DNA of 64,000 nt from Candidatus Gorgyraea atricola (GTDB lineage: Bacteria; Omnitrophota; Gorgyraeia; Gorgyraeales; Gorgyraeaceae), in NCBI GenBank assembly GCA_030765235.1, contig JAVCCW010000029.1, positions 76,939-140,938 on the forward strand, written 5' to 3'. This document shows positions 2,870 through 56,921 of this stretch, one piece after another (the stretch's first letter is position 1; every line of letters starts with the position of its first letter). The notes beneath the pieces were generated by a model. That model did not search any database, had not been told where the DNA came from, and saw nothing but the letters and a program-made list of their open reading frames with translations. Made by a program: the position numbers and the translations under genes.

Positions 2870-2930
2870 ATAAATAGATTATAAATATAATTAAGAATAG
2901 TCTTGCTGCTACAGGATGAGGAGGAAAATC

Positions 2931-5053: not shown

Positions 5054-6610
5054 GTGAATAAGCGTCCGCTTGCTGTAATTGCGATTTTCTTTGCATTAGG
5101 TATTGTCATTGCTAAGTTTTTGCCTGATTCTGTTCTATTTCCGCATGTATTCGTAGTTAGTTTAATCTTCATTTTATCGTCTTTACTTCTCACTCTACGT
5201 AGGCCAGGTTTAAACCTGGCCTACGGTGTAGATGGGGCGAGAAGAAAAGCCTCAAATATCCTTTTACTTTTATCAATAGCTTCATTCGCGATGCTTCTGT
5301 ATATCAATTCAAATATCTTTCCGAATAATCACATCAGCAATTTCTTAGGAGAGGAAAAACTCAAAACAGAGATAGTCGGCACTATCAAAAGCCCTGCATT
5401 GACGCGGAAGCCGTATTATGGGAAAATTAACTCGACGTATATATTCGACTTAGAAGCCATGCTGGTGAACGGTGAACGGTTTACGGTTAACGGATTAAGT
5501 CAGATAAGGATACAGACGGAAAAAGACTATCAATATGGCGATAGATTGCTTGTTAGAGGGACGATAAAAAGACCGTTCAATAGTGTCATTGCGAGCGAAG
5601 CGAAGCAATCTCAAGAAAAAGAGATTGCTTCGGCTGCTTCGCCCCGTTCCAAATCAGAGATTTGGAACGGGGCTTCGCAGCCTCGCAATGACAAGAGGAG
5701 TTTTGATTACCGAGGATTTCTCGAACGACAAAACATCTTTGCCCTTATAAACACAAGAGAGAATAATATTACTGTCCTATCTCACGATTACAAATCAAAT
5801 CCTATCCTGAGATATGCGTATTTACTCCGCGACAAACTGAAAAATCAAATCATTGATAAGATGCCTTTGGATAGCGGCGCTTTTTTAAGGGCGATTCTTC
5901 TGGGAGATCGCTCAGAATTGCCAAAACATGTTCGGGATTCATTTAAAAACTCAGGTACTATACATGTCCTGGCAATAAGCGGTCTGCATATTGGGATTAT
6001 TGCGCTTATGATCCTTTATCTTTTTAGGCTCTTGAGGGTCAGGAGGGAATTTTCTTACGGATTAACAATAATATTTTTGATATTTTTTGCGCTTCTTACG
6101 CTTTCAAGGCCATCAGTAGTAAGGGCAGTGGTTATGGCATCTATATTTCTTATAGGTATGCTTTTGGGGAAAAAGGTGGATGTGTATAATTCTTTGGGCG
6201 CAGCAGCGCTTTTTATATTGGTCAGGAATCCTAAGGATATTTCCAATATCGGGTTCCAGCTTTCTTTTGCGGCCGTTCTTTCTATATTGTTCTTTACGCC
6301 CAAATTCATGAGGCTTGTGAAGGAGGGGACGAATTTCTATATAAAGAGATTCTTGTATACACCTCTGGCAGTCTCAATATCAGCGTGGGCTGCAACAGCT
6401 CCTTTAATATGGTATTACTTCAAGATCACGACACCCATTGCCATTATCGCTAATCTCTTTATAATACCTGGCCTTTTTGCATTATTGATAGGCGGTCTGA
6501 GTTTTCTATTGCTGGGCTGGGTACCATTTATAGGAGATCTTCTGGCAGGCCTTAATGATTTTCTGTGTCAGGTGATCTTTTTTCTCACAACCTTCTTTGC
6601 ATCCTTTTAA
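5054..6610 (+). CDS. comEC: DNA internalization competence protein ComEC/Rec2 (core channel domain only, no C-terminal metallo-beta-lactamase domain). Contains two in-frame repeat-element insertions.
   Basis: HVLAISGLHIGIIALMILY and a multi-TM ComEC core. It follows comEA. The 26-bp palindrome at 5199..5224 and the 108-bp hairpin element at 5585..5692 are both read through in frame. Confidence 0.8.
   Translation: MNKRPLAVIAIFFALGIVIAKFLPDSVLFPHVFVVSLIFILSSLLLTLRRPGLNLAYGVDGARRKASNILLLLSIASFAMLLYINSNIFPNNHISNFLGEEKLKTEIVGTIKSPALTRKPYYGKINSTYIFDLEAMLVNGERFTVNGLSQIRIQTEKDYQYGDRLLVRGTIKRPFNSVIASEAKQSQEKEIASAASPRSKSEIWNGASQPRNDKRSFDYRGFLERQNIFALINTRENNITVLSHDYKSNPILRYAYLLRDKLKNQIIDKMPLDSGAFLRAILLGDRSELPKHVRDSFKNSGTIHVLAISGLHIGIIALMILYLFRLLRVRREFSYGLTIIFLIFFALLTLSRPSVVRAVVMASIFLIGMLLGKKVDVYNSLGAAALFILVRNPKDISNIGFQLSFAAVLSILFFTPKFMRLVKEGTNFYIKRFLYTPLAVSISAWAATAPLIWYYFKITTPIAIIANLFIIPGLFALLIGGLSFLLLGWVPFIGDLLAGLNDFLCQVIFFLTTFFASF
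5199..5224. repeat. 26-bp palindromic repeat GTAGGCCAGGTTTAAACCTGGCCTAC, copy 1 (in-frame inside comEC)
   Basis: Perfect palindrome containing GTTTAAAC. Seven copies in the window. Confidence 0.9.
5585..5692. repeat. 108-bp MITE-like double-hairpin element with GTCATTGCGAGCGAAGC terminal inverted repeats, inserted in-frame (36 codons) in comEC
   Basis: Termini GTCATTGCGAGCGAAGC...GCTTCGCAGCCTCGCAATGAC. Internal hairpins GAGATTGCTTCG and CCCCGTTCCAAATC/GATTTGGAACGGGG. Confidence 0.7.
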
Positions 6611-6613
6611 ACA

Positions 6614-6639
6614 GTAGGCCAGGTTTAAACCTGGCCTAC
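6614..6639. repeat. 26-bp palindromic repeat, copy 2 (intergenic, 4 nt after the comEC stop), followed by ACTACACTAC tandem
   Basis: Identical 26-mer. Confidence 0.9.
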
Positions 6640-6699: not shown

Positions 6700-7644
6700 A
6701 TGAAGAGACTAAGTATTATAGCTTTAATATTGCTTATATATCATATATTAGTGGCGCCGGCGTTTGCCTTCTGGGTGTGGACGCCTGAGAGCGGCAAGTG
6801 GGAGAACCCTAAGTACGCGGCCAAGGATACGCCTGAGGAGCAGCTGCAGCATGCCATAGGTTTCTACGAGGTCAAGAATTACAAGCTAGCCCTAAAGGAG
6901 TTCAAGAAGTTAATAAAGTATTACTCTCTTGCTAAAGAGGCACCCTCTGCGCAGTATTATGTAGGCCGCATCATGGAAGACCTGGATAAGCCATACGATG
7001 CATTTAAGGCATATCAAAAGGTAATAGACCTTTACCCTTATACAGATTTTGTGGATGAAGTTATCGAGAGACAATTTAAGATAGGTAATATGTTTTTGGC
7101 TGGCAAAAAAGTACAGATCCTGGGACCTCTAAAGATGCCGGCCAAGGATAAGGCAATAGAGATATTCAAGGCAGTGGCTGATACTTCTCCATATGGAAAG
7201 TACGCGGACCAGGCAGTGTTTAAGACGGGGCAGGCATATAAAGACATAGCTGATTATGACAGCGCTATAATGAGCTTCAAAGAGGTCATAGATAAATATC
7301 CTAATTCTGAACTTGTTGATACAGCGAGATATCAGCTGGCAGAGTGCTCAAAGTTATTGTCGTTAAGGCCTGAATATGATCAAACGCCTACAATAGCTGC
7401 CAGGGAGGAGTTCGAAGAGTTCATAGAGAAATATCCTGAAAGTGAGATGTCAGAGGATGCCAGGGAGATAGTTGATAAACTTAGAAATAGAGAGGCAGAG
7501 AACGGGTATAAGGTAGCGCAATTTTATGAATCAAGGCGCATGAATGAGAGCGCGGTTATATATTATGAGGATATAATTAGAAGTTATCCTGATACGCAGT
7601 GGGCCAAAAAAGCCCAGGAGAGATTAAATGAGATTAAGAAGTAG
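6700..7644 (+). CDS. BamD/YfiO-like TPR-repeat outer-membrane assembly protein (signal peptide, no lipobox Cys)
   Basis: Signal peptide ending APAFA. TPR-like repeats (YYVGRIMEDL..., FKTGQAYKDIADYDSA..., DTARYQLAECS...) resembling the BamD family. Candidate promoter at 6664..6692. Confidence 0.5.
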   Translation: MKRLSIIALILLIYHILVAPAFAFWVWTPESGKWENPKYAAKDTPEEQLQHAIGFYEVKNYKLALKEFKKLIKYYSLAKEAPSAQYYVGRIMEDLDKPYDAFKAYQKVIDLYPYTDFVDEVIERQFKIGNMFLAGKKVQILGPLKMPAKDKAIEIFKAVADTSPYGKYADQAVFKTGQAYKDIADYDSAIMSFKEVIDKYPNSELVDTARYQLAECSKLLSLRPEYDQTPTIAAREEFEEFIEKYPESEMSEDAREIVDKLRNREAENGYKVAQFYESRRMNESAVIYYEDIIRSYPDTQWAKKAQERLNEIKK

Positions 7645-8173
7645 TTTTTATCTCTTGTCCCTTGTCCCATGTCTCTTGTCCCTAACAAGCTGTGGCTACA
7701 CCACGAAAACCACCCTTCCGAACGATATAAAAACAATTCAGGTCGCTATATTCAAAAACAAGATCGATATAACAAAAGAGGTAAGCGCAAAGGATAAGTA
7801 TGAGGTCTACAGGCCAAATCTCGAAGTGGATCTCAGGGACGAGATCGTAAATAGAGTGTTTCTGGATGGACATTTAAAGGTGGCCTCAGGGAATGTCGCA
7901 AATGCTATTCTCTCAGGCGAGATCACGCAATACAGAAAAGACCCATTGAGATATCAAAATGAAGAAGTGCGTGAATACAGGATAAGCCTGGTATGTGATT
8001 TTAAATTAATAGATTCCAGGAATGGAGAAGTGTTGATAGAGGAAGATAGTATTACAGGAGATACGACTTATTTTACCACTGGCACGCTTCAGAAGAGCGA
8101 GACAGCTGCCTTAACCGATGCAATGCAGGATCTCGCTAGAAGAGTAGTTAATAGAGTAGTTGAGAACTGGTAA
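7628..8173 (+). CDS. lptE: LptE-like LPS-assembly lipoprotein
   Basis: Signal peptide plus the lipobox LTSCGY. Sits immediately upstream of holA, the conserved lptE-holA arrangement. The 5' end overlaps the bamD-like stop and is built from a CTTGTCCC tandem array. Confidence 0.5.
   Translation: MRLRSSFYLLSLVPCLLSLTSCGYTTKTTLPNDIKTIQVAIFKNKIDITKEVSAKDKYEVYRPNLEVDLRDEIVNRVFLDGHLKVASGNVANAILSGEITQYRKDPLRYQNEEVREYRISLVCDFKLIDSRNGEVLIEEDSITGDTTYFTTGTLQKSETAALTDAMQDLARRVVNRVVENW
7651..7683. repeat. Tandem 8-mer array (CTTGTCCC-like, x4, reverse complement of GGGACAAG). Encodes the hydrophobic core of the LptE-like signal peptide.
   Basis: TCTCTTGTCCCTTGTCCCATGTCTCTTGTCCC. Confidence 0.8.
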
Positions 8174-8179
8174 TAAAAA

Positions 8180-9139
8180 ATGCCCACCAAAATATTCCCC
8201 GCGTATCTTTTTCTTGGCGAAGAGGGTTTTTTAAAGCAAGAGGCGATCGAGAAACTGAAGTCGACTCTTTTGGATAAAAACACCCAGGATCTTAACTACA
8301 ATACATTTTACGCTAAGGACAAGAATTTTAACGTCAGTCAGATGCTTGACGATCTTGATACCATGCCGTTTTTATCAAAGAGGAGGCTGGTGATATTAAA
8401 GGAGGCTGATTCTGTAACCGTATCCGCAAAGACATCGATCCTTTCTTATCTGGAGAGTCCGAGGGAAAGCTCTGTTTTTGTTATTGAAAGCGATCTGCCT
8501 GCAATAAAGGGTGATTTTCTTTTAAAGGCCTCAAAGGCCGCGCACCTGATCTATCACAGGAAGCTGACAGACTCTAGCATCAATACATGGCTTGTTAAAA
8601 GAGCAGGCCTTGCCGGCAAAAAGATCTCCACAGAGGCCATTGACGCAATAAAAGAAAACCTGCCGAATGATCTCAGGGTGATCTCTTCCAATATGGATAA
8701 CATAATCCTCTATGTTGGCAAGAGGCCATTGATAAAAAAGCAGGATATTGAGAATATTGTAGGAGTGAGCCCTTCGCATACTGCCTTTGATCTTATAGAT
8801 GCTATAGGAGAGAAGGATGCTAAAAGAGCGCTGCGTATATTTTCTACTCTTAAGAGAGACAAGAAAAGGGAAACAGAGCTTTTAGGGCTTTTGGCATGGA
8901 ATGCGAGGATGCTTTTAAGGATAAAGGAGCTTTTCAGGATCAAGAATAATATGGAGATGCGTCAGGATCTTGACCTGAGCCCAAGGGTATTTGAGAGGAT
9001 CCTGCGTCACGCGTCTATGCTGAAGAAAAAAGAGATCCTCGCGCTGCTGGACGAGATACTCCGCTCAGACCTTGCTATAAAAACAGGCACTTCTCCTGGC
9101 GCTGTGATAGAGAGATTAATCGTAAGGATGTGTATCTAA
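8180..9139 (+). CDS. holA: DNA polymerase III delta subunit
   Basis: N-terminal ...PAYLFLGEEGFLKQEAIEKLK... is a typical HolA start. About 320 aa. Synteny with lptE. Confidence 0.75.
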   Translation: MPTKIFPAYLFLGEEGFLKQEAIEKLKSTLLDKNTQDLNYNTFYAKDKNFNVSQMLDDLDTMPFLSKRRLVILKEADSVTVSAKTSILSYLESPRESSVFVIESDLPAIKGDFLLKASKAAHLIYHRKLTDSSINTWLVKRAGLAGKKISTEAIDAIKENLPNDLRVISSNMDNIILYVGKRPLIKKQDIENIVGVSPSHTAFDLIDAIGEKDAKRALRIFSTLKRDKKRETELLGLLAWNARMLLRIKELFRIKNNMEMRQDLDLSPRVFERILRHASMLKKKEILALLDEILRSDLAIKTGTSPGAVIERLIVRMCI

Positions 9140-9209
9140 CTTTACTTGGCAAGGCTGGACCTCGGCTTTTTTTAAAAAAAGCCGAGGTCCAGCCTTGCCA
9201 AGTAAAGTT
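9139..9209. terminator. Long perfect hairpin (29-bp stem, A/T-tract loop) between convergent holA and rpsT. Bidirectional intrinsic terminator and member of a repeat family.
   Basis: AACTTTACTTGGCAAGGCTGGACCTCGGC-TTTTTTTTAAAAAAA-GCCGAGGTCCAGCCTTGCCAAGTAAAGTT. Confidence 0.75.
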
Positions 9210-9471
9210 AAGCGGTTTTTAGCTTTTTTGAGAGACGGGCAATTTTGCGCGAGGCAGTGTTCTTGTGGATAATGCCTTTTGAACTTGCCCTGTCGAGCGT
9301 TGAGATGAGGACATTGAGCTGTTTCTTTGCCTCATCCAGTTTTTTTGCAGACACAAGATCTATAAATTTCTTTGTCTCAGTCTTTAAAAGAGACTTTATA
9401 GACAGATTCCGCGCGGTCCTTCTTTTGGTTACCTTGATACTCTTGTAAGCAGCATGTAGTATTGGCATCAT
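9208..9471 (-). CDS. rpsT: 30S ribosomal protein S20
   Basis: An 87-aa basic protein reading MPILHAAYKSIKVTKRRTARNLSIKS... matches the S20 family. Convergent with holA and shares the bidirectional hairpin terminator. Confidence 0.85.
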   Translation of the reverse strand: MMPILHAAYKSIKVTKRRTARNLSIKSLLKTETKKFIDLVSAKKLDEAKKQLNVLISTLDRASSKGIIHKNTASRKIARLSKKLKTA

Positions 9472-11038: not shown

Positions 11039-12261
11039 AAAAGATACCGCGCTCGCCTGGTATTTACATGATGAAGGATGCCGGGGGTGAGGTGCTCTAT
11101 ATAGGTAAGGCAAAGGATCTTTCGAAAAGGGTCGCAAGTTATTTTCAGAAGAATCGGCCTGTGACTGCGAGGCGGATGCATTTATTGGAACGCGTGAAGG
11201 ACCTGGATTATATAACTACGACTTCTGAAGAAGAGGCGCTTATCTATGAGTCGAATCTCATAAAGGAGAAAAAGCCGAAGTATAATGTGGACCTCAAGGA
11301 CGACAAGAGTTTTCCTTTTTTGAAATTGACATCGGGTGAGCGGTTTCCGCGACTTGTTATTACGCGGAAAAAGAGTGACGATGGCTCGAGATATTTTGGG
11401 CCGTACACGCGCGTGAAGCTTTTGCGCAAGGCGATTGCGGTAATGAAGGCCATCTTCCCTCTACGCACGTGCAAGAAGATGCCGGATCACGTGTGCCTGT
11501 CATATCATATTGGCCAGTGCGCAGGACCGTGCGTTAAAAAAGTCAGCGAAAAGGAGTATGGCGAGATCGTGAGGCAGCTTGTATTGTTTCTAGAAGGAAA
11601 AAAGGCGACACTTTTAAGAGAATTGGAGCAAAGAATGGGGGACGCAGCAAAGAATGAGAGATTCGAGGATGCGTGCATGATCCGCGACAGGATCGCAGCG
11701 CTTTCAGAGGTGCCTGGAAAAAAGTTCAGGGAATATAGCGGGTATGGCGATGTCGCGGTAAAGCTAAAAAGGCTTTTGCGGCTGCCGAGACTGCCTTTAA
11801 AGGTCGAGGCGTTTGACGTGTCAAATATATCAGGCCAGGAGGCCACAGGGTCGATGGTATATTTCAAGAATGGCAAGCCTGATAAATCAAATTACAGGAA
11901 ATTCAAGATAAAAAGCGTAAAGGACATAGACGACTATGCAATGATCCAGGAAATCGTGAGACGCAGGTACAAGCGGCTCAAGGAGGAAGACAAGGAGTTT
12001 CCCGATCTTATCATAATAGACGGGGGCAAGGGTCATTTACAGGCGGCATACAGGGAGCTCATGAAGCTGAATCTCAGGTATGTACCTATAATATCCATTG
12101 CAAAGAAACAGGAAAAGATATACACGCTTGGCGCTAAAAGCCCGTTGGATGTGAACAGGGACTCGCAGATCGTGCACTTTATCCAGCAGATCCGTGACGA
12201 AGCCCACCGCTTCGCGCTCAAGTATCACCACAAGCTGCGGGATAGGAAAGCAAGCCTCTAA
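11017..12261 (+). CDS. uvrC: UvrC-like excinuclease (short form, 414 aa). Has GIY-YIG, UVR and a RDEAHRFA-containing segment but lacks the C-terminal (HhH)2 domain.
   Basis: GIYMMKDAGGEVLYIGKAKDLSKRVASYF (GIY-YIG). UVR-like segment LRELEQRMGDAAKNERFEDACMIRDRIAAL. IRDEAHRFALKYHH near the C-terminus. The first 22 nt overlap the end of murJ. Confidence 0.65.
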   Translation: MGLKEKLKKIPRSPGIYMMKDAGGEVLYIGKAKDLSKRVASYFQKNRPVTARRMHLLERVKDLDYITTTSEEEALIYESNLIKEKKPKYNVDLKDDKSFPFLKLTSGERFPRLVITRKKSDDGSRYFGPYTRVKLLRKAIAVMKAIFPLRTCKKMPDHVCLSYHIGQCAGPCVKKVSEKEYGEIVRQLVLFLEGKKATLLRELEQRMGDAAKNERFEDACMIRDRIAALSEVPGKKFREYSGYGDVAVKLKRLLRLPRLPLKVEAFDVSNISGQEATGSMVYFKNGKPDKSNYRKFKIKSVKDIDDYAMIQEIVRRRYKRLKEEDKEFPDLIIIDGGKGHLQAAYRELMKLNLRYVPIISIAKKQEKIYTLGAKSPLDVNRDSQIVHFIQQIRDEAHRFALKYHHKLRDRKASL

Positions 12262-12297
12262 CTTTACACTTTTGTGATACACAGAAAAGTGTAAAGT
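12261..12297. terminator. Hairpin ACTTTACACTTTTGTG...CACAGAAAAGTGTAAAGT after uvrC
   Basis: About 16-bp imperfect stem immediately after the stop codon. Confidence 0.55.
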
Positions 12298-12302
12298 AGT
12301 AA

Positions 12303-12328
12303 AGTAGGCCAGGTTTAAACCTGGCCTA
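12303..12328. repeat. 26-bp palindromic repeat, copy 3 (uvrC-prfB spacer), followed by CTACTGCTACTGCT
   Basis: Identical 26-mer. Preceded by the AACTTTACACTTTTGTG hairpin. Confidence 0.9.
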
Positions 12329-12365
12329 CTGCTACTGCTCGGGGTGGTTAGGTGATATGAAAGCG

Positions 12366-16416: not shown

Positions 16417-17811
16417 ATGCTACTCACCATCATCTCTGCCATACTACTAATACTCGCCTTCCCAAACTTTAATCAGAGTTATTTTGTTTTTATAGGTTTT
16501 GTCCCGCTCCTTTTTGCAATACAGAAAAAGTCGGCAAAAAAGGCATTTTGGAATTCGTACCTGTGCGGGTTTTTATTTTACCTCGGTGTCTTATACTGGC
16601 TTTACCATGTGACAGGTGTTGGACTTATTATTCTTTGTCTCTATCTTGCGCTGTATTTCGGGATCTTTGGATTTTTATTCAATCGCGCCACCTATTATAC
16701 TTCAGGTTTCAGCCTTTTATTTATACCGCTAATATGGATTTTTCTTGAATATGTACAGTCTCATCTTTTTTCAGGTTTTGGCTGGGCCTTGCTGGGCTAT
16801 TCGCAATACAAGAAGCTGCATCTAATCCAGATCGCGGATTTTGCAGGAGTCTATGGTGTTTCATTTCTTGTGATGATGGTGAATGTCGCAGTCTATAAGT
16901 TTTTCAAGAGATCAGCAAAACATCTTGTGATATCTGCTTTGGTTCTGGCAATGGTATTTTGGTATGGGAAAATGAGGGAGAATGAGGGGGAATGGGGGGA
17001 TGGTCTTAAAGTATCAGTTATACAGGGAAACATTCCGCAGGAGATTAAATGGGATCCTTTTGCGAGTGACGAGATAATGAAGTCATATTTTAATCTAACC
17101 AGGCTCGCAGCATTTGACGAACCTGATTTAATAATCTGGCCTGAGACGTCTTTCCCTGGATTTTTTATAAGCGATGAGGAAAAAACCAAACAGGTCCTTG
17201 ATCTGGCAAGAAAGATACAGATCCCGCTTTTAATAGGAGCAAATACTGTAGATGGTTTGGATATTTTAAATAGCGCAGTGCTTATCTCAAAAAAAGGCGA
17301 AGTGATAGACAAATACGATAAGCTCCACCTTGTGCCTTTTGGCGAATTCGTGCCATTTGGAGACAAAATCCCTTTTTTGCATAGACTGGTGCTCGGCGAA
17401 CTGGGTCATTTTACAGCAGGAGAAGAGTACAGGATATTTAAGATCGAATACCCTTCTCCGCAGAAAATCTTTGATTTTAGTACAGGCGAACAGCAAGCCG
17501 CAAACATCGAGCATAGATTTGCTACGCTGATCTGCTTCGAGGACATCTTTCCTGGCATTGCCAAGCGGTTTGTCCAGAAAGGCGCGCAGTTTCTAGTGGT
17601 AATCACGAACGATGCCTGGTATGGCAAAAGCGGCGCACCTTATCAACACACAGCCTGCTCAGTCTTCCGCGCAATCGAGAACCGCGTCCCAATCGTACGC
17701 TGCGCCAACACAGGCTTTTCCTGCTTCATAGACCCCTACGGCCGCATCCACGACCCCATAGAAGATATATTTACCTCTAAACACAAAACCTCCACTGTTA
17801 AACTGAGATAA
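16417..17811 (+). CDS. lnt: Apolipoprotein N-acyltransferase
   Basis: N-terminal multi-TM region plus a CN-hydrolase domain (LICFEDIFP, WPETSFPG). Confidence 0.8.
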   Translation: MLLTIISAILLILAFPNFNQSYFVFIGFVPLLFAIQKKSAKKAFWNSYLCGFLFYLGVLYWLYHVTGVGLIILCLYLALYFGIFGFLFNRATYYTSGFSLLFIPLIWIFLEYVQSHLFSGFGWALLGYSQYKKLHLIQIADFAGVYGVSFLVMMVNVAVYKFFKRSAKHLVISALVLAMVFWYGKMRENEGEWGDGLKVSVIQGNIPQEIKWDPFASDEIMKSYFNLTRLAAFDEPDLIIWPETSFPGFFISDEEKTKQVLDLARKIQIPLLIGANTVDGLDILNSAVLISKKGEVIDKYDKLHLVPFGEFVPFGDKIPFLHRLVLGELGHFTAGEEYRIFKIEYPSPQKIFDFSTGEQQAANIEHRFATLICFEDIFPGIAKRFVQKGAQFLVVITNDAWYGKSGAPYQHTACSVFRAIENRVPIVRCANTGFSCFIDPYGRIHDPIEDIFTSKHKTSTVKLR

Positions 17812-17845
17812 CTTGACACTTTTCTATGTGTCACAAAAGTGTAAA

Positions 17846-17871
17846 GTAGGCCAGGTTTAAACCTGGCCTAC
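17846..17871. repeat. 26-bp palindromic repeat, copy 4 (after lnt), flanked by two CACAAAAGTGTAAAGT motifs
   Basis: Identical 26-mer. Confidence 0.9.
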
Positions 17872-17898
17872 CGAGGGTCACAAAAGTGTAAAGTTACT

Positions 17899-17927
17899 TT
17901 GACAAGGAAGGGGCTTTTTGGTATAAT
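17899..17927 (+). promoter_or_regulatory. Consensus sigma70 promoter for the J-domain repeat protein gene
   Basis: TTGACA, 17 nt, TATAAT. Perfect consensus. Confidence 0.7.
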
Positions 17928-17956
17928 GGTAAGAAGTATTTAAAAGTCTTTAATTG

Positions 17957-19585
17957 ATGATCATGAAAAAAGTAATATTGATTTTAATAATATTGTCCCT
18001 CCTGACTCAAGGGCAGAGTTTTGCCTTGAGGCCGCGTTTGCGTTTTAATGAGCCAGAAATACTTAATTCAAATAAAGAAATTAATCCTGAAGACTATGCC
18101 ACAGGTGAAGAGATATCAATTACAAGTGGGCAGGTTATACCTATGCCAGACACAGACGGTATTTATGTGGTAGATTATCTACTAGAAAGATACGTTGATT
18201 CCGACGAGGCCAAGACAAGACTTTTTGCCATAGTCGAGAAAGAAGGAAAAGATATTATTGCCAAAATAATCTCCAAAGAAGATAATGGCACAATAAAACT
18301 TTGGGAAAAACATAAATTCATCAAAGGAAAATTTAAAAGTAAATACGGCAAATATGTTAGCGGCAAATGGAAACTTGTTTTCGTTAACATGGAAGCTTAT
18401 ATCACAGCTGAAGAAATGCCTCTTGTAAATAGATTTCCTACGTTTATTCCAAGAACCAATCAGGTACACTTACCGGATTACCTGATGAGATTATATCCCA
18501 ACATCAAGAGGATGATAGTAAAAGAAAAAGGCAATATTATTACTAAAATATTCTCTAGAGAAGATGGTAAAGTGATAGTCTGGGAAAGGTATAGGTTCAT
18601 TCCATGTGGGATTATAACGAGAGGCGGTGCATATTTTATTGGTAAATGGAAGCGCATTTTTTATCTAGAAAATTATACTGTCTCCAGAGAAATGCCTATT
18701 GCAGTAGTATCCCCGCGGTTGATACCAGAGGGAGAAAATAGACTCTATATACCACGTTATCTAATGGAAACCTATGTTAATCCTAACAAAGCCAAAACAA
18801 GACTTTTTGCTATGTTAAAAAAAGAAGAAGGCTATATTAACTGTAAAATAATTTCCAGAGAATCTGATGGAATAGTAAAATACTGGGGAAATCATAAGTT
18901 CATACTAGCCAAAATTAAAAAGCAGGGCGTAGAATTCGCTGGTAAATGGAAATTCGAATGGAGTAAAAGTTTTGTTGCTAAAAAGCCAAAAAGGGAAGTC
19001 GGTAAAAAAGAAGTCTCTAGAGAAAACTCTTCTAAAAAAATCTCTTTTTACCGCGAGCTCAAGAGGCAGTTGAAGATGGGAAATAAAATAAAAGACTATT
19101 ACAAGAGGTTAGGGCTAGGCATATATGCCACTACTGACGAGATAAAAAGGGCATATCGCATGTTAGTAATGCAGTTTCATCCTGATCAGGGTAAAGATTC
19201 AGATGCAAAGGTCTTTAAATTGATCAAAGAGGCATATGAAGTTTTAAAGGATCCCAAAAAAAGACAAAGTTATGACCGTTTCATGAGAAATAGTTTCAAA
19301 CCTACAGAGTTAAAGAAAATAAACAGTTACCTTGAGCGACCTGAGAATATAGGAGTAATTTTTCATTTTGACAAAAGGACGGGCAAGAGAGTATTCCTTA
19401 TTCCGCGTAAGGTTGTAGCTAAAGCTGTAAAGATAGATGTTGATCTAATCGACTGGGCTATTGAGAAACATAACTATCAACAACATAGAAAAACTGGAGG
19501 ATATTTCACCCCATTCTCCTTTCCACCTGAAAAGATGCTGAATAGTATATTAGAAACAGCAGACGCAGCACGGACAGATAATTAA
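17957..19585 (+). CDS. AT-rich membrane-anchored or secreted J-domain protein. Three ~100-aa tandem repeats are followed by a DnaJ (HPD) domain and a C-terminal domain.
   Basis: Signal or anchor peptide KKVILILIILSLLTQGQSFA. Three repeats share Y[LV].Y....KAKTRLFA....E....KIISRE.G.IK.W...KFI..K.K....F.GKWK. J domain YYKRLGLGIYATTDEIKRAYRMLVMQFHPDQ. Consensus promoter at 17899..17927. Confidence 0.6.
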   Translation: MIMKKVILILIILSLLTQGQSFALRPRLRFNEPEILNSNKEINPEDYATGEEISITSGQVIPMPDTDGIYVVDYLLERYVDSDEAKTRLFAIVEKEGKDIIAKIISKEDNGTIKLWEKHKFIKGKFKSKYGKYVSGKWKLVFVNMEAYITAEEMPLVNRFPTFIPRTNQVHLPDYLMRLYPNIKRMIVKEKGNIITKIFSREDGKVIVWERYRFIPCGIITRGGAYFIGKWKRIFYLENYTVSREMPIAVVSPRLIPEGENRLYIPRYLMETYVNPNKAKTRLFAMLKKEEGYINCKIISRESDGIVKYWGNHKFILAKIKKQGVEFAGKWKFEWSKSFVAKKPKREVGKKEVSRENSSKKISFYRELKRQLKMGNKIKDYYKRLGLGIYATTDEIKRAYRMLVMQFHPDQGKDSDAKVFKLIKEAYEVLKDPKKRQSYDRFMRNSFKPTELKKINSYLERPENIGVIFHFDKRTGKRVFLIPRKVVAKAVKIDVDLIDWAIEKHNYQQHRKTGGYFTPFSFPPEKMLNSILETADAARTDN

Positions 19586-19605
19586 AATCACACCTTAAGT
19601 CCCAC

Positions 19606-19637
19606 CCCCGTACCAGTCGCTTCGCTCCGGTACGGGG
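19606..19637. terminator. GC-rich hairpin CCCCGTACC...GGTACGGGG after the J-domain protein gene
   Basis: 9-bp GC-rich stem. A related CCCCG...GGTACGGGG motif occurs at 1150..1185. Confidence 0.5.
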
Positions 19638-19651
19638 CAAACCTATTTCTA

Positions 19652-19680
19652 TTGACACTATAATACATATAGGATATAAT
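19652..19680 (+). promoter_or_regulatory. Consensus sigma70 promoter for lysS
   Basis: TTGACA, 17 nt, TATAAT. Confidence 0.7.
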
Positions 19681-19706
19681 TGCCCAGAAGGAAGGGGTGT
19701 ATTTTT

Positions 19707-21149
19707 ATGCAGGATGTGAATGAGTTTGTAAAGCAGCGCATTGATAAGCTTAATGCCTTGAAAGAGATAGGTGTTGAAGTATATGGCAGGCATTTTAATA
19801 AGGCGCAGGGTATTGACGAGCTTGTTAAGGGGTTTAAAGAAGGGGATAAAGTCGAGACTGCTGGTCGCATTACTGCGCTTCGGGAGCACGGGAAGAGTGC
19901 TTTTATGGATTTAAGGGATGCCAGCGGAAGAGTGCAAATCTATGTAAAAGCGAACATAATCGGAGTCGAGACATTTAATAGTATATTTAAGAAATTAGAT
20001 ATAGGTGATATATTAGGGGTAAAAGGCGAGTTTTTTAAGACGCGCACTGAAGAGGTTACAATAAATGCCAGTGAGATAACTGTTCTTGCTAAGGGGCTGA
20101 GGCCGCTTCCTGAGAAATGGCATGGTCTAAAGGATGTTGAGATCAGGTATCGCCAGAGATATGTAGATCTGATAGTCAATGAAGATGTGCGCAAGGTCTT
20201 TCAGCTTCGCAGTAAGATCATATCAAAGATCAGGGAGCTTCTGGATAAAAAAGGATTCTTAGAAGTAGAGACTCCTATGATGCATTCGCTCGCAGGCGGC
20301 GCAGCAGGTGAGCCATTTAAGACGCACCATAAGGCTTTGGATACTGATTTATATTTGAGACTGGCGCCGGAATTACATTTAAAGAGATTGCTGGTGGGCG
20401 GTTTTGATAAGGTCTATGAACTCAATAGAAACTTCAGGAACGAGGGCATCTCTATCAGGCACAATCCTGAGTTTACAATGGTTGAGATCTACCAGGCTTA
20501 TTCTGACTGCGAAGGCATGATGCGGCTTACAGAAGAGATATTGAGCTTTGCCGCAAAAGAGGCTTTGGGGAGTCTAAAGATTAAATTTAAAGATCAGGAG
20601 ATCGATCTATCGACGCCATGGCCCAGGTGGTCTTTTGCCAGCGAGATCAAAAAGAAGTTTGATATAAATCCTGATGATCCTGCTGAAGAATGGATCAAGA
20701 AGCTCAAGAAAAAAGGCATGAATTTCAAGGGAAAGGATGTTACTCGCTCGCAGATCGTAAATATAATTTCAGAGATGCTCGAGCCCGAGACAAAGGATAA
20801 GCCGATGTTTGTCGTGGATCTATTTGCTGAGCTGTGCCCATTGGCAAAGAAGCAAAAGGATAATCCGTTACTGACTGACAGGTTTGAGCTTTTTATGGGC
20901 GGCATGGAAATAGCGAATGCATATTCAGAGCTGAATGACCCGATCGAACAGGAAAAGAGATTCAAGGAACAGCTTGTGGGACAGGAAGGCACTAAGAAGA
21001 TCGACGAGGACTTTGTCAGGGCCTTGGAATACGGCATGCCGCCAGCAGGCGGCCTGGGCATAGGCATAGACAGGCTCGTGATGTTACTCGCGAACCAGCC
21101 GTCGATCAGGGATGTCATATTGTTTCCGCAACTTAAGCCGGAGAAATAA
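19707..21149 (+). CDS. lysS: Lysyl-tRNA synthetase (class II)
   Basis: Class II motifs plus an OB anticodon-binding domain. ATG at 19707 with RBS GGAAGGGG. Consensus promoter at 19652..19680. The TTG at 19680 given in the ORF track is unlikely to be the start. Confidence 0.9.
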   Translation: MQDVNEFVKQRIDKLNALKEIGVEVYGRHFNKAQGIDELVKGFKEGDKVETAGRITALREHGKSAFMDLRDASGRVQIYVKANIIGVETFNSIFKKLDIGDILGVKGEFFKTRTEEVTINASEITVLAKGLRPLPEKWHGLKDVEIRYRQRYVDLIVNEDVRKVFQLRSKIISKIRELLDKKGFLEVETPMMHSLAGGAAGEPFKTHHKALDTDLYLRLAPELHLKRLLVGGFDKVYELNRNFRNEGISIRHNPEFTMVEIYQAYSDCEGMMRLTEEILSFAAKEALGSLKIKFKDQEIDLSTPWPRWSFASEIKKKFDINPDDPAEEWIKKLKKKGMNFKGKDVTRSQIVNIISEMLEPETKDKPMFVVDLFAELCPLAKKQKDNPLLTDRFELFMGGMEIANAYSELNDPIEQEKRFKEQLVGQEGTKKIDEDFVRALEYGMPPAGGLGIGIDRLVMLLANQPSIRDVILFPQLKPEK

Positions 21150-23918: not shown

Positions 23919-24431
23919 ATGTTATGTGATACATGCAAAAAGTCTCAGGCAACAGTGCATTTGACAGAGATCATAGACGATCAGATGACAGAGCTTCATC
24001 TGTGCGAGGAATGCGCGCAGAAAAAAGGCGCGCAGATGGAGAGTCACTTTGGCCTGGCAGATCTTTTAGCCGGCCTTGCAGACTTAGGTAGCGGCCAGTT
24101 TACCAAGGCAAAGAGTGAGACGCAGGTCAAGTGCCCGCGATGCGGCCTTACCTATGAGGATTTTAAAAAAGTAGGAAGATTAGGCTGCGGTGAATGTTAT
24201 TCCGCGTTCAAAGAGGCGCTTATGCCTCTTCTAAAAAGGATACACGGCTCTACGCAGCATTATGGCAAGTCTCCGAAAAAGATGACAAAGACAACAAAGT
24301 CAGTAAAGAGCAAAAATGAATTACAGGAACTAAAAGATAAGCTGCAAAAGGCAATACAGGTGGAGGAGTTTGAGGAAGCAGTTAAGGTGCGAGATAAAAT
24401 CCGTGATATAGAGAAACGCAGGAAGAAATGA
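23919..24431 (+). CDS. mcsA: Protein-arginine kinase activator McsA (zinc-finger plus UVR-domain protein)
   Basis: Two CxxC pairs at the N-terminus (CDTCKK...CEECAQ, CPRCG...CGECY). C-terminal UVR motif (EEFEEAVKVRDKI). Immediately upstream of mcsB-clpC. Confidence 0.75.
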   Translation: MLCDTCKKSQATVHLTEIIDDQMTELHLCEECAQKKGAQMESHFGLADLLAGLADLGSGQFTKAKSETQVKCPRCGLTYEDFKKVGRLGCGECYSAFKEALMPLLKRIHGSTQHYGKSPKKMTKTTKSVKSKNELQELKDKLQKAIQVEEFEEAVKVRDKIRDIEKRRKK

Positions 24432-24536
24432 CCAATGCCCAATTACCAATGACCAATAAATTCCCAATTACCCAATTTCCAATTGGTCATTGGACATTGG
24501 TCATTTATTGGTAATTGGGAATTGGTAATTGGAAAT
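24431..24536. repeat. About 106-bp imperfect palindrome built from CCAAT/ATTGG units (centre CCAATTGG), between mcsA and mcsB
   Basis: ACCAATGCCCAATTACCAATGACCAATAAATTCCCAATTACCCAATTTCCAATTGG... mirrored. Confidence 0.8.
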
Positions 24537-24554
24537 TTTAAGGGGGTTTTACAC

Positions 24555-25604
24555 ATGAAAATAGATGATTTAGTAGGTAACCAAGGCGAGTGGCTGAGGA
24601 GTACCGGGCCGAATTCTGACATCGTGATGTCTTCGCGCATACGGCTGGCAAGGAATCTGGCAAAATATCCTTTTGCGCACTGGGCGAGCAAAAAAGAACA
24701 GCAAGAAATATGGCAGACTGCAAGGGACACGATAAAAACTTCAAAGAAAGTCAAGGGGTCCCTGTGCCTGGATATAGGAAAGATAGATTCTACAGACAGA
24801 CAGTTTCTAGTGGAAAGACATCTGATGAGCAAGGAACATACTGTTGACGCAGAGAACAAGGGCCTTTGCGTGAGCGACAGGGAAATCGTAAGCATAATGG
24901 TGAATGAGGAAGATCATTTGCGCATCCAGGTCATGAAATCAGGTTTTGACCTTAGAGATGCCTGGCACATAATCAATGATATTGATAATGAACTCGGCAC
25001 TTCTTTAAATTACGCGTATTCTATGGATTTCGGATACTTGACAGCATGCCCGACAAATACCGGCACAGGCATGCGCGCGTCAGTGATGCTGCATCTTCCG
25101 TCGCTGGTGATGACAAAGCAGATCGCCAAGGTCTTACAGGCGATCACTAAACTCAGTCTTACCGCGAGAGGCCTGTACGGAGAAGGCACAGAGGCAAGTG
25201 GAAATTTTTTCCAGATATCGAATCAGGTCTCGCTGGGCCACGCGGAAGAGGATATCATTGATAATATAGAAAGAATCATCAAGCAGATCATAGGCCATGA
25301 GCAGAGCGCAAGGGAATCGCTTGTTTCACAAAATAAAAATGCCCTTGCAGACAGGGTCTGGCGGGCGTATGGGACATTGAAAAACGCGTATATCATATCG
25401 AGCAACGAGACTATCGATCTTCTCTCGCTTGTGAGGTTAGGCGTTGACCTTGATTTAATAAAGGAAGTGGATCGCGCGCTTATAAATGAATTATTTATAA
25501 TAATACAACCCGCGCATCTTCAAAAGTTAGAGAAGAAAAAACTAAATCCAAATGAGAGGGATGTCAGGCGAGCGCAGTTGATCAGGGAGAAACTGGGAAA
25601 ATAA
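24555..25604 (+). CDS. mcsB: Protein-arginine kinase McsB (ATP:guanido phosphotransferase)
   Basis: [18 protein letters not shown] is the phosphagen-kinase active-site motif. ATG at 24555 follows RBS AAGGGGG. The upstream part of the track ORF lies inside a large palindrome. Confidence 0.85.
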
Positions 25605-25618
25605 GGAGGGTACGCAAG

Positions 25619-28072
25619 ATGTTTAACAGATTCACGGAACGGGCACGCAAGGTGATCTTACTTGCAAAGGAAGAAGCAAAGAGATTCAATCATGATTACA
25701 TTGGCACTGAACATATTCTGCTTGGGCTTGTCAGAGAAGGCGAGGGTGTGGCCGCGGTGGTGCTCCAGAAGATGGGGCTCAGCCTTCAGCAGATACGCCT
25801 TGAGATAGAAAAGCTTGTAAAGCCAGGACCGAGCACAGTTATATCAGGCGATATACCTTTTACGCCAAAGGCAAAAAAGGCAGTAGAGTTTTCCGGCGAA
25901 GAGGCGCGCGCGCTTGGCCATAATTACATTGGCACAGAGCATCTTTTGTTAGGGCTTATACGAGAAGGAGAGGGTGTTGCTTCTCAGGTGCTTTTAAATA
26001 TGGGAGTGGATCTTGATAAAGTAAGAGGCGAGGTGGTCGAGCTTTTAGGCTCTGCAACGCCAGGTTTTAGCGCTGGACCGCAGCAGCAGAAGGGTCCTGG
26101 AGGCCGCGCACCAGGCGCAAAATCAAGTTCAAAGACGCCTGCGCTTGACGCATTTGGCAGAAACCTTTCGCAGCTCGCGCGTGATGATAAATTAGATCCT
26201 GTAATCGGAAGACAGAATGAGATCGAAAGGGTGATCCAGATACTTTCAAGGCGCACAAAGAATAATCCAGTACTGCTCGGCGAGGCAGGCGTGGGCAAGA
26301 CTGCTATTGTGGAGGGCCTTGCGCAGAAGATAATAAAAGGAGATATCCCGGAGCTATTGAAGAATAAAAAGGTTATTATCCTGGATCTTGCGCTCATGGT
26401 CGCTGGTACTAAATACAGAGGCCAGTTTGAAGAAAGAATAAAGGCGATCATGGATGAGATAAAGCGCTCGAACGATATAATCATCTTTATAGATGAGCTT
26501 CATACATTGGTAGGAGCAGGCGGCGCGGAAGGCGCTATAGACGCGTCAAATATCTTGAAGCCAGCGCTTTCACGAGGTGAGATTCAATGCATTGGAGCTA
26601 CCACCCTGGATGAATACCGTAAGCACATAGAAAAGGACGCGGCGCTTGAACGTAGATTCCAGACAATAATGGTGGATCCGCCAACAGTGGCTGAGACCAT
26701 AGAAATACTCAAGGGCTTAAGGGATAGATACGAGGCGCATCATAAAGTGGAGATCACAGATGATGCAGTCGAGGCAGCAAGTAAGTTTTCAGACAGATAT
26801 ATTGCTGGCAGGTTCCTGCCAGATAAGGCAATCGACCTTATAGATGAGGCTGGCGCAAAGGCAAGGCTCTCTATCATGACTGCTACTCCTGAGATAAAGG
26901 AGTTAGAGGAAAAGGCAGAGGAGATAAAAAAAGAAAAAGACGCCGCTATAAAGGACCAGGATTTTGAAAAGGCAGCGGGTCTAAGGGATAAAGAAAAAGA
27001 GAGCCGTAAAAAACTCGATAAGACCAAACAACAATGGAAAAAGGCCAGGATGGAGGCAAGACCAAAGGTCGACGAGGAACTAATAGCGGATATTGTTTCG
27101 AAATGGACAGGCATTCCTGTAGCGAGGATGGAGCAAAAAGAGGGTGAGAGGCTCTTGAGGATGGAAGACGAGCTTCACAAGAATATCATCGGACAGGATG
27201 AGGCAATAATTGCTATTGCCCGCGCAGTGAGGCGTTCACGCGCAGGCATAAAAAATCCCAAAAGGCCCATAGGCTCTTTTGTATTTCTCGGGCCGACTGG
27301 AGTGGGAAAGACGCATCTTGGAAGGGTCCTGGCAGAATTTATGTTCGGGGACGAGAACGCGCTTATACAGATTGACATGTCAGAGTACATGGAGAAGTTC
27401 AATGTCTCGCGTCTTATAGGCGCGCCTCCTGGATACGTTGGATACGAGGAGGGCGGGCAGCTTACTGAGAAGGTAAGGCGCAGGCCTTATTCTGTGGTGC
27501 TCCTGGATGAGATAGAAAAGGCGCATCCTGATGTATTTAATCTCCTTCTTCAGGTGCTGGAAGACGGGAGACTCACAGACAGCTTTGGAAGAAAAGTAGA
27601 TTTTAGGAATACGATACTCATCATGACTTCGAACGTGGGCGCTGAGATCTTCAGACGACAGGGCTCCATTGGTTTTAAGTCAGAGAAAAAGGAAATGACC
27701 TATAATGATACAAAGGAAAAGCTGCTTGAAGAAGTAAAAAAGACCTTCAAGCCTGAGTTTTTAAACAGGATCGACGATATTATCGTGTTCCATGGCCTTA
27801 CCAAACAGGATCTCTATAAGATCGTAGAGATAGAATTAAAGGAAGTCAAGGACAGGCTGAAGGAACAGGATATTGAGGTAGAATTAGATAAGTCTGCAAA
27901 GGAAATATTAGTGGAAAAGGGATTTGATCCGATCTTTGGCGCGCGGCCTCTTAAACGCACGATACAGAGACTGCTGGAAGATCCTCTGGCAGAGGAGATC
28001 ATTGCCAAAAACTTTGACAGGTCTAAACCTATCAAGATCAGCGCTAAGAACGGGAAATTAGTATTCAAATAA
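25619..28072 (+). CDS. clpC: ATP-dependent Clp protease ATP-binding subunit ClpC
   Basis: Double N-terminal Clp repeat, two AAA+ modules ([30 protein letters not shown]), a UVR-like middle domain. 817 aa. Confidence 0.9.
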
Positions 28073-32458: not shown

Positions 32459-33127
32459 ATGAATGTCGCAGCCATAGTTCCCGCCGCAGGTAAAGGTAGG
32501 CGCATAAAATCAAAGATAGCCAAGCCACATATAAAGCTTTGCGGCAAACCAATACTTGCGCATACGCTAGTCAGGCTTTCAAAGAATAAACACATAAAAG
32601 AGATCATTGTCAGCGTCGATAAAAAACATATAGCAAGGGTCAAGAGATTCAAGATCAAGAATGTAAAGGTAGTAGCTGGAGGAAGGGAAAGAAAGCACTC
32701 CGTGCTTAATGCATTGAAAAAGGTGTCTAGCAACATAGATTATGTATTGATCCACGATGGCGTGAGACCCTTTCTTACTGATAAATTAATAAACGCCTCT
32801 TTAAAGGCAGCTCGCTCTTTTGGCGCAAGTGTTGTCGCGGTACCTGTAAAACCTACCTTGAAATGCGCTGGGAGGAGAGGCTGTGTAGCATACACGCCTG
32901 ATAGGACAAAGTTTTGGGAGGCGCAGACACCTCAGGTATTCAAAAGAGATTTAATAGAGAAGGCATACAGGGCCATTGGCAAGAAAAACATAACAGATGA
33001 TTCCATGCTGGTCGAGCTCCTGGGCATAAAACCAAAACTAGTCATGGGCTCGTACAGAAATATAAAGATCACGACAGAAGAAGATTTGAAACTGGCAAAG
33101 ATGTTGTGTAGTTTACCTCCTCTGTAG
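32459..33127 (+). CDS. ispD: 2-C-methyl-D-erythritol 4-phosphate cytidylyltransferase
   Basis: MNVAAIVPAAGKGRR is a typical IspD start. The stop codon TAG lies inside the 26-bp palindrome at 33124..33149. Confidence 0.85.
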   Translation: MNVAAIVPAAGKGRRIKSKIAKPHIKLCGKPILAHTLVRLSKNKHIKEIIVSVDKKHIARVKRFKIKNVKVVAGGRERKHSVLNALKKVSSNIDYVLIHDGVRPFLTDKLINASLKAARSFGASVVAVPVKPTLKCAGRRGCVAYTPDRTKFWEAQTPQVFKRDLIEKAYRAIGKKNITDDSMLVELLGIKPKLVMGSYRNIKITTEEDLKLAKMLCSLPPL

Positions 33128-33157
33128 GCCAGGTTTAAACCTGGCCTACAGAGGAGG
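33116..33157. repeat. 26-bp palindromic repeat, copy 5, with an extended 42-bp palindrome CCTCCTCTG...CAGAGGAGG. Carries the ispD stop codon and the ispF RBS.
   Basis: Core at 33124..33149. The arms extend the palindrome to 42 bp. Confidence 0.9.
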
Positions 33158-56889: not shown

Positions 56890-56921
56890 GAAGTAGCCCA
56901 GGTTTAAACCTGGGCTACTTC
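56890..56921. repeat. 26-bp palindromic repeat, variant copy 7 (GTAGCCCAGGTTTAAACCTGGGCTAC) with GAAG/CTTC arm extension. leuA-aroE spacer.
   Basis: Core at 56893..56918. Compensatory G/C swap on both arms. Confidence 0.85.

Follow-up and report, generated by a model that had tools for sequence, protein, structure and literature searches.

The 64-kbp window analyzed here (the whole stretch of 64,000 nucleotides of Candidatus Gorgyraea atricola, phylum Omnitrophota; contig JAVCCW010000029.1, forward-strand positions 76,939 to 140,938) contains between lnt and lysS a gene, here called X, whose product is, as judged from its sequence, a J-domain protein of class C (type III) whose J domain has its histidine-proline-aspartate (HPD) motif intact. 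The J domain is preceded by a probable Sec signal peptide and three tandem repeats and is followed by a C-terminal domain (Table 1), and according to the searches described below the repeats and the C-terminal domain are two domain families without classification, known from three lineages. We tentatively propose that X is a lineage-restricted class C J-domain co-chaperone that is exported through Sec and is effector-like, and that it might act on the Hsp70 of another cell.

Domain organization of the X protein

The J domain provides the only Pfam match of X (PF00226, residues 378-438, E = 1e-19, 70.7 bits against a cutoff of 27.8) and covers the full profile from position 1 to 63. The H406-P407-D408 motif is invariant in X and in its two homologs described below, P0002 and P0003, and the basic helix II residues are intact and conserved in all three proteins. 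The first-pass annotation of the window had described a bona fide J domain with HPD, and this description is borne out by the profile score and the motif.

The same annotation had reported three internal tandem repeats of ~100 amino acids, and pairwise BLASTP comparisons between the three (E = 4e-22, 3e-16 and 3e-14; 33-49% identity) agree with it, giving repeats of ~95 residues with a period of 92-98 residues. The positions common to the repeats are P..YL...Y, KIIS+E.DG.[IV]K.W, +F[IL] and GKWK, and each repeat is basic with an isoelectric point (pI) of 9.3-10.2. The motifs listed at first pass are only partly shared by the repeats: KIIS+E.DG.[IV]K.W and GKWK are common to them, but KTRLFA is confined to repeats 1 and 3, repeat 2 having a 7-residue deletion there, and KFI.K.K is clear in repeats 1 and 3 but not in repeat 2. 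An AlphaFold2 (AF2) model of repeat 3 from an eight-repeat alignment (predicted local distance difference test score, pLDDT, 60; predicted template modeling score, pTM, 0.51) consists of a short helix and then four antiparallel strands in a beta meander, and a Foldseek search of this model against PDB and BFVD gave no convincing match (best E 0.02-0.1, TM <0.4). The repeats, including single repeats, have no Pfam match even at E ≤ 10.

A linker rich in Lys, Arg and Glu, within which the segment FY.ELKRQLKMGN is conserved, leads into the J domain. The C-terminal domain had been put at ~130 residues, and its actual size is ~100. A full-length AF2 run with a two-sequence alignment reached a pLDDT of only 33 and is unusable as a model; taken as secondary structure only, it predicts a helix, a beta-hairpin and further helices in the C-terminal domain. 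The fusion of a J domain to a novel triple-repeat module was considered unusual in the first-pass annotation, and with both the repeats and the tail unclassified the architecture is indeed unusual.

Relatives and rate of evolution

When the N-terminal 353 residues of X were used as the query of a word-seeded search against 5.8 billion proteins, only X itself and P0002, a protein of 516 residues, were returned. P0002 is encoded on an 8.3-kb Joint Genome Institute (JGI) contig (L001) with the same gene order of prfB-secA-lnt-X-lysS, and its genome is the NCBI metagenome-assembled genome (MAG) GCA_018818505.1. For the ortholog in this assembly (L009, JAHIRR010000290.1, 885-2432), only the last 172 residues, counted from an internal Met, are annotated; the complete open reading frame (ORF) of 516 codons, signal peptide included, is intact there, and the short annotation is an under-call in AT-rich DNA.

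A six-repeat profile, searched exhaustively with HMMER against 1.84 billion cluster representatives, added one real relative, P0003 (422 residues, E = 1e-13). The other 13 weak profile matches are WD40 or propeller-like repeat proteins which match only at a hairpin motif 'S.E.DG.I..W' of ~16-30 residues. P0003 contains two repeats, a J domain and the same C-terminal domain, and the succession of repeats, J domain and tail is thus a conserved unit. It derives from an organism with a GC content of ~30%, and its gene context (rplS, tRNAs and membrane proteins) is unrelated to the X locus. P0003 lacks both a signal peptide and a hydrophobic N-terminus; a good Shine-Dalgarno sequence, AAGGGGGTG, stands before its ATG, and 21 nt upstream of this ATG the frame is closed by a stop codon. 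Overall identity between X and P0003 is 34%, although the octapeptide NPEDYATG is identical in the two, positioned before repeat 1 in X (residues 41-48, nucleotides 18083-18106) and before the second repeat in P0003 (residues 147-154, L006 ~2775-2798). This octapeptide, which may represent a short linear motif, is deleted in the closer ortholog P0002. At L006 1700-2130, before the gene of P0003, is a segment of ~400 bp with a GC content of 0.41 compared to ~0.30 and no convincing ORF; it includes a hairpin, ctcccgaaatcaaagctttgatttcgggag, at L006 ~2098-2127 that has no Rfam match at the gathering threshold.

Searches of Pfam, NCBIfam, PHROGs, PADLOC, PDB sequences, IMG/VR, INPHARED phages and PLSDB plasmids gave no further relatives for either the repeats or the tail, and the PHROGs matches cover only the J domain of X. 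A scan of JGI metagenomes returned, among the matches listed, only the two known contigs, and an Rfam scan was negative. A profile search with the C-terminal domain recovered only the truncated annotation of the known ortholog, and a word-seeded search with this domain alone gave no relatives, a weak negative given that X itself was not returned either. A scan of genome contigs with unspecific patterns (MKKVILIL) yielded only unrelated J-domain proteins.

X and P0002 share 58% identity, with 0.25 nonsynonymous (dN) and 0.71 synonymous (dS) substitutions per site and a dN/dS ratio of 0.35. The neighboring prfB, secA, lnt and lysS are compared with the same relative at 87-94% protein identity, with dN/dS of 0.07-0.12 and dS of 0.37-0.50. 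X is under purifying but relaxed selection. With an intact ORF and a dN/dS of 0.35 in two lineages it is a real and constrained gene, evolving several times faster than its housekeeping neighbors, and fast evolution of this sort is typical of accessory or interaction proteins. The rate differs greatly among the parts of the protein (Table 1).

Topology of the N-terminus

Topology was judged by sequence rules and inspection, using flank charges and the biological-scale insertion energy summed over 19 residues. The N-terminal signal or anchor-type peptide mentioned in the first-pass annotation is present, with MKK followed by VILILIILSLL and TQGQSFA, and L as the first residue after the predicted cleavage site. 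The hydrophobic core (Ile/Leu/Val) is 11-12 residues long with an insertion energy of +1.0 to +1.4 kcal/mol; a positive energy and a short core are signal-peptide-like and not those expected of a stable membrane helix. The N-terminal flank has a charge of +2 and the 15-residue C-terminal flank a charge of +3 in X and 0 in the ortholog. Since orthologs should share a topology, the net charge of 0 in the ortholog means that the positive-inside rule favors an N-in, C-out orientation.

By inspection the N-terminus has the sequence features of a signal peptide for Sec and signal peptidase I (SPase I), namely a basic n-region, a hydrophobic h-region within the usual 7-15 residues and a polar c-region with small residues, S at -3 and A at -1. 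The S-F-A motif fits signal peptidase I and is conserved in the ortholog, and the N-termini of BamD (6700-7644) and of other predicted envelope proteins in the window are similar to that of X. The N-terminus of X therefore looks like a cleavable Sec signal rather than an N-out anchor of the DjlA type, and we consider it probable that X is exported. A lipoprotein signal was rejected because there is no Cys in the signal, as was a Tat signal because there is no twin-arginine before the h-region.

Comparison with other J-domain proteins

In X, as in the Escherichia coli protein DjlA, a hydrophobic segment for membrane targeting stands at the N-terminus, and the middle region before the J domain is not of the DnaJ type. 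Both lack a G/F region and a zinc finger, and both are presumed to guide DnaK to a particular client or location. DjlA, however, has a type III topology (N-out, C-in), a long dimerizing transmembrane helix, a TerB-like domain and a J domain at the extreme C-terminus (PMC11451591), whereas X has a short core with an SPase I motif, a basic N-terminal flank, three unclassified repeats and 100 residues after the J domain. Membership of the DjlA family was rejected, with a score of 26.3 bits to NF006948 (cutoff 162), no TerB match in Pfam and a J domain that is not terminal.

With DnaJ and CbpA, X shares the J domain and its HPD motif, and its best NCBIfam matches are to the first ~75 positions of DnaJ models. 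In contrast to these proteins it lacks a G/F region, a CxxCxGxG zinc finger and the substrate-binding domains of the DnaJ C-terminus, and its J domain is internal. A class A or B assignment was rejected (NCBIfam DnaJ 82.8 bits against 377, CbpA 46.6 against 403). The first-pass annotation had raised the alternative that the repeat is a known DjlA or CbpA accessory domain. It matches no such domain of DjlA, CbpA or DnaJ: Pfam gives nothing for it at E ≤ 10, and the DjlA and CbpA models reach only 26 of 162 and 47 of 403 bits.

A similar layout is seen in HopI1 of Pseudomonas syringae, in which an N-terminal targeting region and tandem repeats also precede the J domain. HopI1 is a secreted protein that takes over the Hsp70 of a foreign organism; its function requires the repeats, which are dispensable for binding to Hsp70 (PMC4617103). 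Unlike X it has a type III signal, disordered P/Q-rich repeats of 27-38 residues, a C-terminal J domain and a plant host. The two have no sequence similarity outside of the J domain, and the resemblance is an architectural analogy only. Rki of phage RB43 and AtcJ are, like X, class C J-domain proteins that are ORFans or belong to small families, and they employ a J domain with DnaK (foreign in the case of Rki) for one specialized outcome (PMC3486835, PMC6715715). They differ from X in that they are short cytoplasmic proteins whose J domain is N-terminal and which lack both a signal peptide and repeats.

The repeat hairpin of X, 'S-[KR]-E-x-D-G-x-[IV]-K-x-W', resembles the WD40 strand 'DGTIKLWD', and the repeats draw motif-level matches over ~16-30 profile positions to designed WD40 proteins in PDB and to propeller-like repeat proteins. 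A WD40 or beta-propeller assignment was nevertheless rejected: there is no PF00400 match, for single repeats even at E ≤ 10, the period is 92-98 residues compared to ~40, and there are three copies rather than the usual minimum of 6-7 per domain. The helix and four-stranded meander of the repeat model are also unlike the blade set of WD40 proteins.

Possible roles of X

J domains dock on ATP-bound Hsp70 (DnaK) and trigger ATP hydrolysis, while other domains pick the client or place. J domains need cytoplasmic Hsp70 and ATP and, as universal adaptors, determine the site and the substrate of Hsp70 action; the periplasm has neither Hsp70 nor ATP. If the N-terminus of X inserts N-in and is cut by signal peptidase I, the protein would leave the cytoplasm, and because Lnt, LolCD and BamD are encoded in the window, indicating a diderm envelope, Sec-exported X would reach the periplasm first. 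Its own DnaK would there be out of reach, with no Hsp70 or ATP at hand, and yet the J domain is under selection; the partner would then be the Hsp70/DnaK of another cell. The J domain would stimulate this foreign Hsp70, and the repeats and C-terminal domain would choose the client or the place. A putatively host-dependent Omnitrophota would deliver X onward and subvert the proteostasis of its host or prey in the manner of HopI1 or phage Rki.

This proposal is favored by the J domain itself, which scores 70.7 bits against a cutoff of 27.8 with HPD conserved in all three homologs, by the signal-peptide features of the N-terminus, by the intact ORF and its fast evolution under selection in two lineages, and by the strong promoter of X, which is conserved in both lineages. 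Members of the Omnitrophota have been proposed to be predators or parasites (PMC10066038), and Gorgyraeia genomes contain type II secretion (T2SS) and Tad systems (bioRxiv 10.64898/2026.06.07.730766). Precedents for a J domain that subverts a foreign Hsp70 are HopI1 (PMC4617103), phage Rki (PMC3486835) and exported Plasmodium J proteins (PMC1431722).

Several observations count against action on a foreign Hsp70 or against export as such. There is no link between X and a secretion system, a host or a delivery route. Arginines are present at +2, +4 and +6 after the predicted cleavage site of X (only at +2 in the ortholog), and arginines at these positions are unfavorable for translocation in E. 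coli Sec export. Conservation is far higher in the signal peptide (95%) than in the mature protein (58%), which is atypical for a cleaved signal. P0003, the only distant homolog, lacks a signal peptide or hydrophobic N-terminus, and a cytoplasmic ancestral function is accordingly more parsimonious.

A more specific form of the proposal is that X is a Sec-exported effector with which an ultra-small, putatively predatory or parasitic Omnitrophota seizes the DnaK/Hsp70 of a bacterial or archaeal host, the triple beta-repeat module serving as a targeting device strapped to the J domain; in this form we regard it as doubtful. To our knowledge no J-domain effector with a Sec signal has been described in an interaction between prokaryotes, and we know of no molecular effectors in the Omnitrophota.

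The serious rival to export is a membrane-tethered cytoplasmic co-chaperone following a DjlA-like logic, in which the N-terminus is an uncleaved anchor and the J domain brings the cell's own DnaK to the inner membrane, with the basic repeats and the C-terminal domain binding a membrane-proximal client. The dependence of J domains on cytoplasmic Hsp70 and ATP speaks for a tether of this kind, as does the signal-less and therefore cytoplasmic P0003. The location among secA, lnt and lolCD would fit a role in envelope biogenesis, although, given its separate promoter and its deviating base composition, X is linked to these genes by synteny and not as part of an operon. The unusual conservation of the N-terminal segment recalls the functional transmembrane helix of DjlA (PMC11451591). 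The three Arg that follow the hydrophobic segment fit the positive-inside rule, but the basic MKK flank and the C-terminal flank charge of 0 in the ortholog predict N-in rather than N-out. The core of only 11-12 residues with its positive insertion energy, the conserved canonical S-F-A cleavage motif, the lack of a TerB-like domain and the DjlA model score of 26 bits (cutoff 162) also disagree with a tether, which we judge unlikely.

We consider it improbable that X is exported only to remain in the periplasm or at the surface as a structural or binding protein, its repeats being the functional part (binding, for example, an envelope polymer or another cell) and its J domain working independently of Hsp70 or in folding before export. 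The signal-peptide features and the basic (pI 9.3-10.2), beta-rich repeats are consistent with such a protein, and X is one of a number of low-GC3 ORFan genes (GC3 being the GC content at third codon positions), several with signal-peptide-like N-termini. The HPD motif and helix II/III signature are, however, kept in three lineages, with a dN/dS of 0.29, which argues for a canonical Hsp70 interaction, and we know of no established Hsp70-independent function of a J domain.

The X locus and its promoter

The order of genes at the locus is prfB-secA-lnt-X-lysS-lolC-lolD, all transcribed rightwards, with X flanked by lnt (16417-17811) and lysS (19707-21149). X with a start at 17963 is a 100% match to an NCBI protein of the Ca. 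Gorgyraea atricola MAG, named only 'DnaJ domain-containing protein'. The first-pass annotation placed the gene at 17957..19585; the ORF is real, but the start is taken as 17963 in agreement with the NCBI protein.

The GC content of X is 0.355 compared to 0.427 for lnt, 0.478 for secA and 0.446 for lysS, in keeping with the earlier remark that it is strongly AT-rich relative to lnt and lysS. Its GC3 is 0.327 against a window mean of 0.449 (standard deviation 0.073), such that the AT-richness is due to codon choice as well as to the Lys/Ile-rich composition.

The perfect TTGACA-17-TATAAT promoter reported upstream of X is present at 17899-17927. Perfect copies of this sequence occur twice in the window (0.04 expected), and the two flank X, one before X and the other before lysS; both are retained in the relative on L001, where the X promoter has the form TTGACG-17-TATAAT with an identical TGGTATAAT. 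As lysS has its own promoter, at 19652-19680, its transcription does not depend on X. Both the leader of X (minimum free energy -2.8 kcal/mol, z +1.4) and the start region are unstructured. A 10-nt sequence, AAGGAAGGGG, is found both at 17904 in the spacer of the X promoter and at 19688 in the Shine-Dalgarno region of lysS.

Table 1. Coordinates of X, its domains and associated elements. Positions are those of the window; identity and dN/dS refer to the ortholog P0002, and values for the repeats are ranges.
Feature	Position	Strand	Evidence or remark	Identity	dN/dS
Intergenic palindromic element 3' of lnt	17830..17894	+	26-bp perfect palindrome 17846-17871 between two 18-nt direct repeats		
X promoter, sigma-70-type	17899..17927	+	TTGACA, 17-nt spacer ending TGG, TATAAT (extended -10 TG); 12/12 match		
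X 5' leader, short (35 nt), AT-rich	17928..17962	+	no obvious Shine-Dalgarno; nearly identical in L001		
X ORF, Ca. Gorgyraea atricola (Omnitrophota)	17954..19585	+	in-frame starts TTG 17954, ATG 17957, ATG 17963		
X coding sequence	17963..19585	+	start used ATG 17963; 540 aa plus stop		
Predicted signal peptide, aa 1-21	17963..18025	+	MKK / VILILIILSLL / TQGQSFA, predicted cleavage after SFA; sequence heuristics	95% (20/21)	0.06
Acidic variable linker, aa 22-59	18026..18139	+	pI 4.3, NPEDYATG motif; 18-aa deletion (indel) in ortholog	26%	~0.8
Repeat 1, aa 60-151	18140..18415	+	BLASTP between repeats	48-61%	0.32-0.49
Repeat 2, aa 152-243	18416..18691	+	BLASTP between repeats; without KTRLFA segment	48-61%	0.32-0.49
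Repeat 3, aa 244-341	18692..18985	+	BLASTP between repeats; AF2 model	48-61%	0.32-0.49
Lys/Arg/Glu-rich basic linker, aa 342-377	18986..19093	+	predicted helix into J domain; secondary structure from low-confidence model		
J domain, aa 378-440	19094..19282	+	PF00226; HPD aa 406-408 = nt 19178-19186	71%	0.29
C-terminal domain, aa 441-540, ~100 aa	19283..19582	+	unclassified, motifs PEN.G.IF and WAI; family-only	67%	0.30
GC-rich hairpin 3' of X, no T-run	19606..19637	+	-18 kcal/mol, z -3.67; not called intrinsic terminator		
lysS promoter, second perfect TTGACA-17-TATAAT	19652..19680	+	identical in L001		
26-bp palindrome copies	5199-5224, 6614-6639, 12304-12329, 17846-17871, 33124-33149, 41407-41432, 56893-56918				

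Intergenic palindromes and the age of X at the locus

The first-pass annotation noted a palindrome between two motif copies upstream of X and a GC-rich hairpin downstream, and both are present. The upstream element contains exact 18-nt direct repeats, GTCACAAAAGTGTAAAGT, at 17830-17847 and 17877-17894, and its stem-loop has a folding energy of -23 kcal/mol (z -3.65). The 26-bp palindrome within it, GTAGGCCAGGTTTAAACCTGGCCTAC, has 7 copies in the window where 0 are expected. Each of the 7 is just 3' of a plus-strand gene, and two have compensatory double substitutions that preserve the stem; the palindrome looks like a genome-wide repetitive extragenic palindromic (REP) or terminator-like element. 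A motif, (C)ACAAAAGTGTAAAGT, accompanies it at two loci, 12261-12297 and 17830-17894, forming direct repeats around the palindrome at 17830/17877 and an inverted pair, 12261(-)/12280(+), just upstream of the palindrome at the other. This motif might represent a target-site duplication or belong to a composite element. The GC-rich hairpin downstream of X has a second copy at 1153-1184 and is absent from L001.

The spacer between lnt and X in L001 contains a different palindrome (L001 6138-6208, corresponding to 9137-9210 of the window), and the lysS leader there has an extra palindrome of ~55 bp (L001 ~7880-7940). At least three further palindrome or hairpin families occupy intergenic spacers and differ at orthologous sites between the two related genomes, the sites that differ being the lnt-X spacer, the X-lysS spacer and the lysS leader. 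This suggests that the intergenic palindromes comprise several mobile or turnover-prone families, similar to REP elements or miniature inverted-repeat transposable elements (MITEs) and perhaps acting as terminators. Being genome-wide and different between relatives, they say nothing specific about X and are not part of the gene.

The description of X as apparently acquired, if this means a recent insertion delimited by the flanking repeats, is not upheld. The check suggested at first pass, whether relatives have the gene between lnt and lysS, finds X at this site on the contig of P0002, with a GC content of 0.357 and with promoter and leader kept. Since position, low GC content and promoter are common to the two lineages, X was in place in their ancestor and is no recent arrival. 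A recently acquired mobile cassette, or a decaying and functionless gene, bounded by the flanking repeats is thus very improbable and was rejected, as its low GC and GC3 relative to its neighbors, the palindromic repeats on both sides and the very narrow phyletic distribution are outweighed by the same position and GC content in a relative at a dS of ~0.45 at the neighboring genes, the conserved promoter and leader, the genome-wide palindromes that differ between relatives, a dN/dS well below 1, an intact 540-codon ORF in AT-rich DNA, and the lack of phage, plasmid or defense relatives and of any integrase or transposase nearby.

Other genes of the window

Four more genes without a Pfam domain have a low GC3 (0.21-0.32 against the mean of 0.45), at 1573-2469, 2916-5045, 48014-49057 and 61524-63437. 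Signal-peptide-like N-termini are seen in the first three of these and none is obvious in the gene at 61524-63437. Together with X they may represent a class of AT-rich, orphan and probably exported proteins. The 64-kb window contains no DnaK gene and no second J-domain gene. Approximately 4 kb downstream of X, at 23919-28072, is a cluster of mcsA-like (a UvrB/C-motif protein), mcsB-like (a 373-residue ORF at 24483) and clpC-like (817 residues) genes with roles in protein quality control, labels that derive from N-terminal sequences only; the cluster has no evident link to X.

Implications

X adds two unclassified domain families, a repeat of ~95 residues and a tail of ~100 residues, which are represented in three lineages among billions of proteins. 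A J domain behind an export signal in a diderm points either to a membrane-tethered co-chaperone with an unrecognized client-binding module or to a secreted manipulator of foreign chaperones. X is a concrete and testable effector candidate in a phylum suspected of predation or parasitism on microbes, and if the proposed role is true it would represent a new way of attacking the proteostasis of prey.

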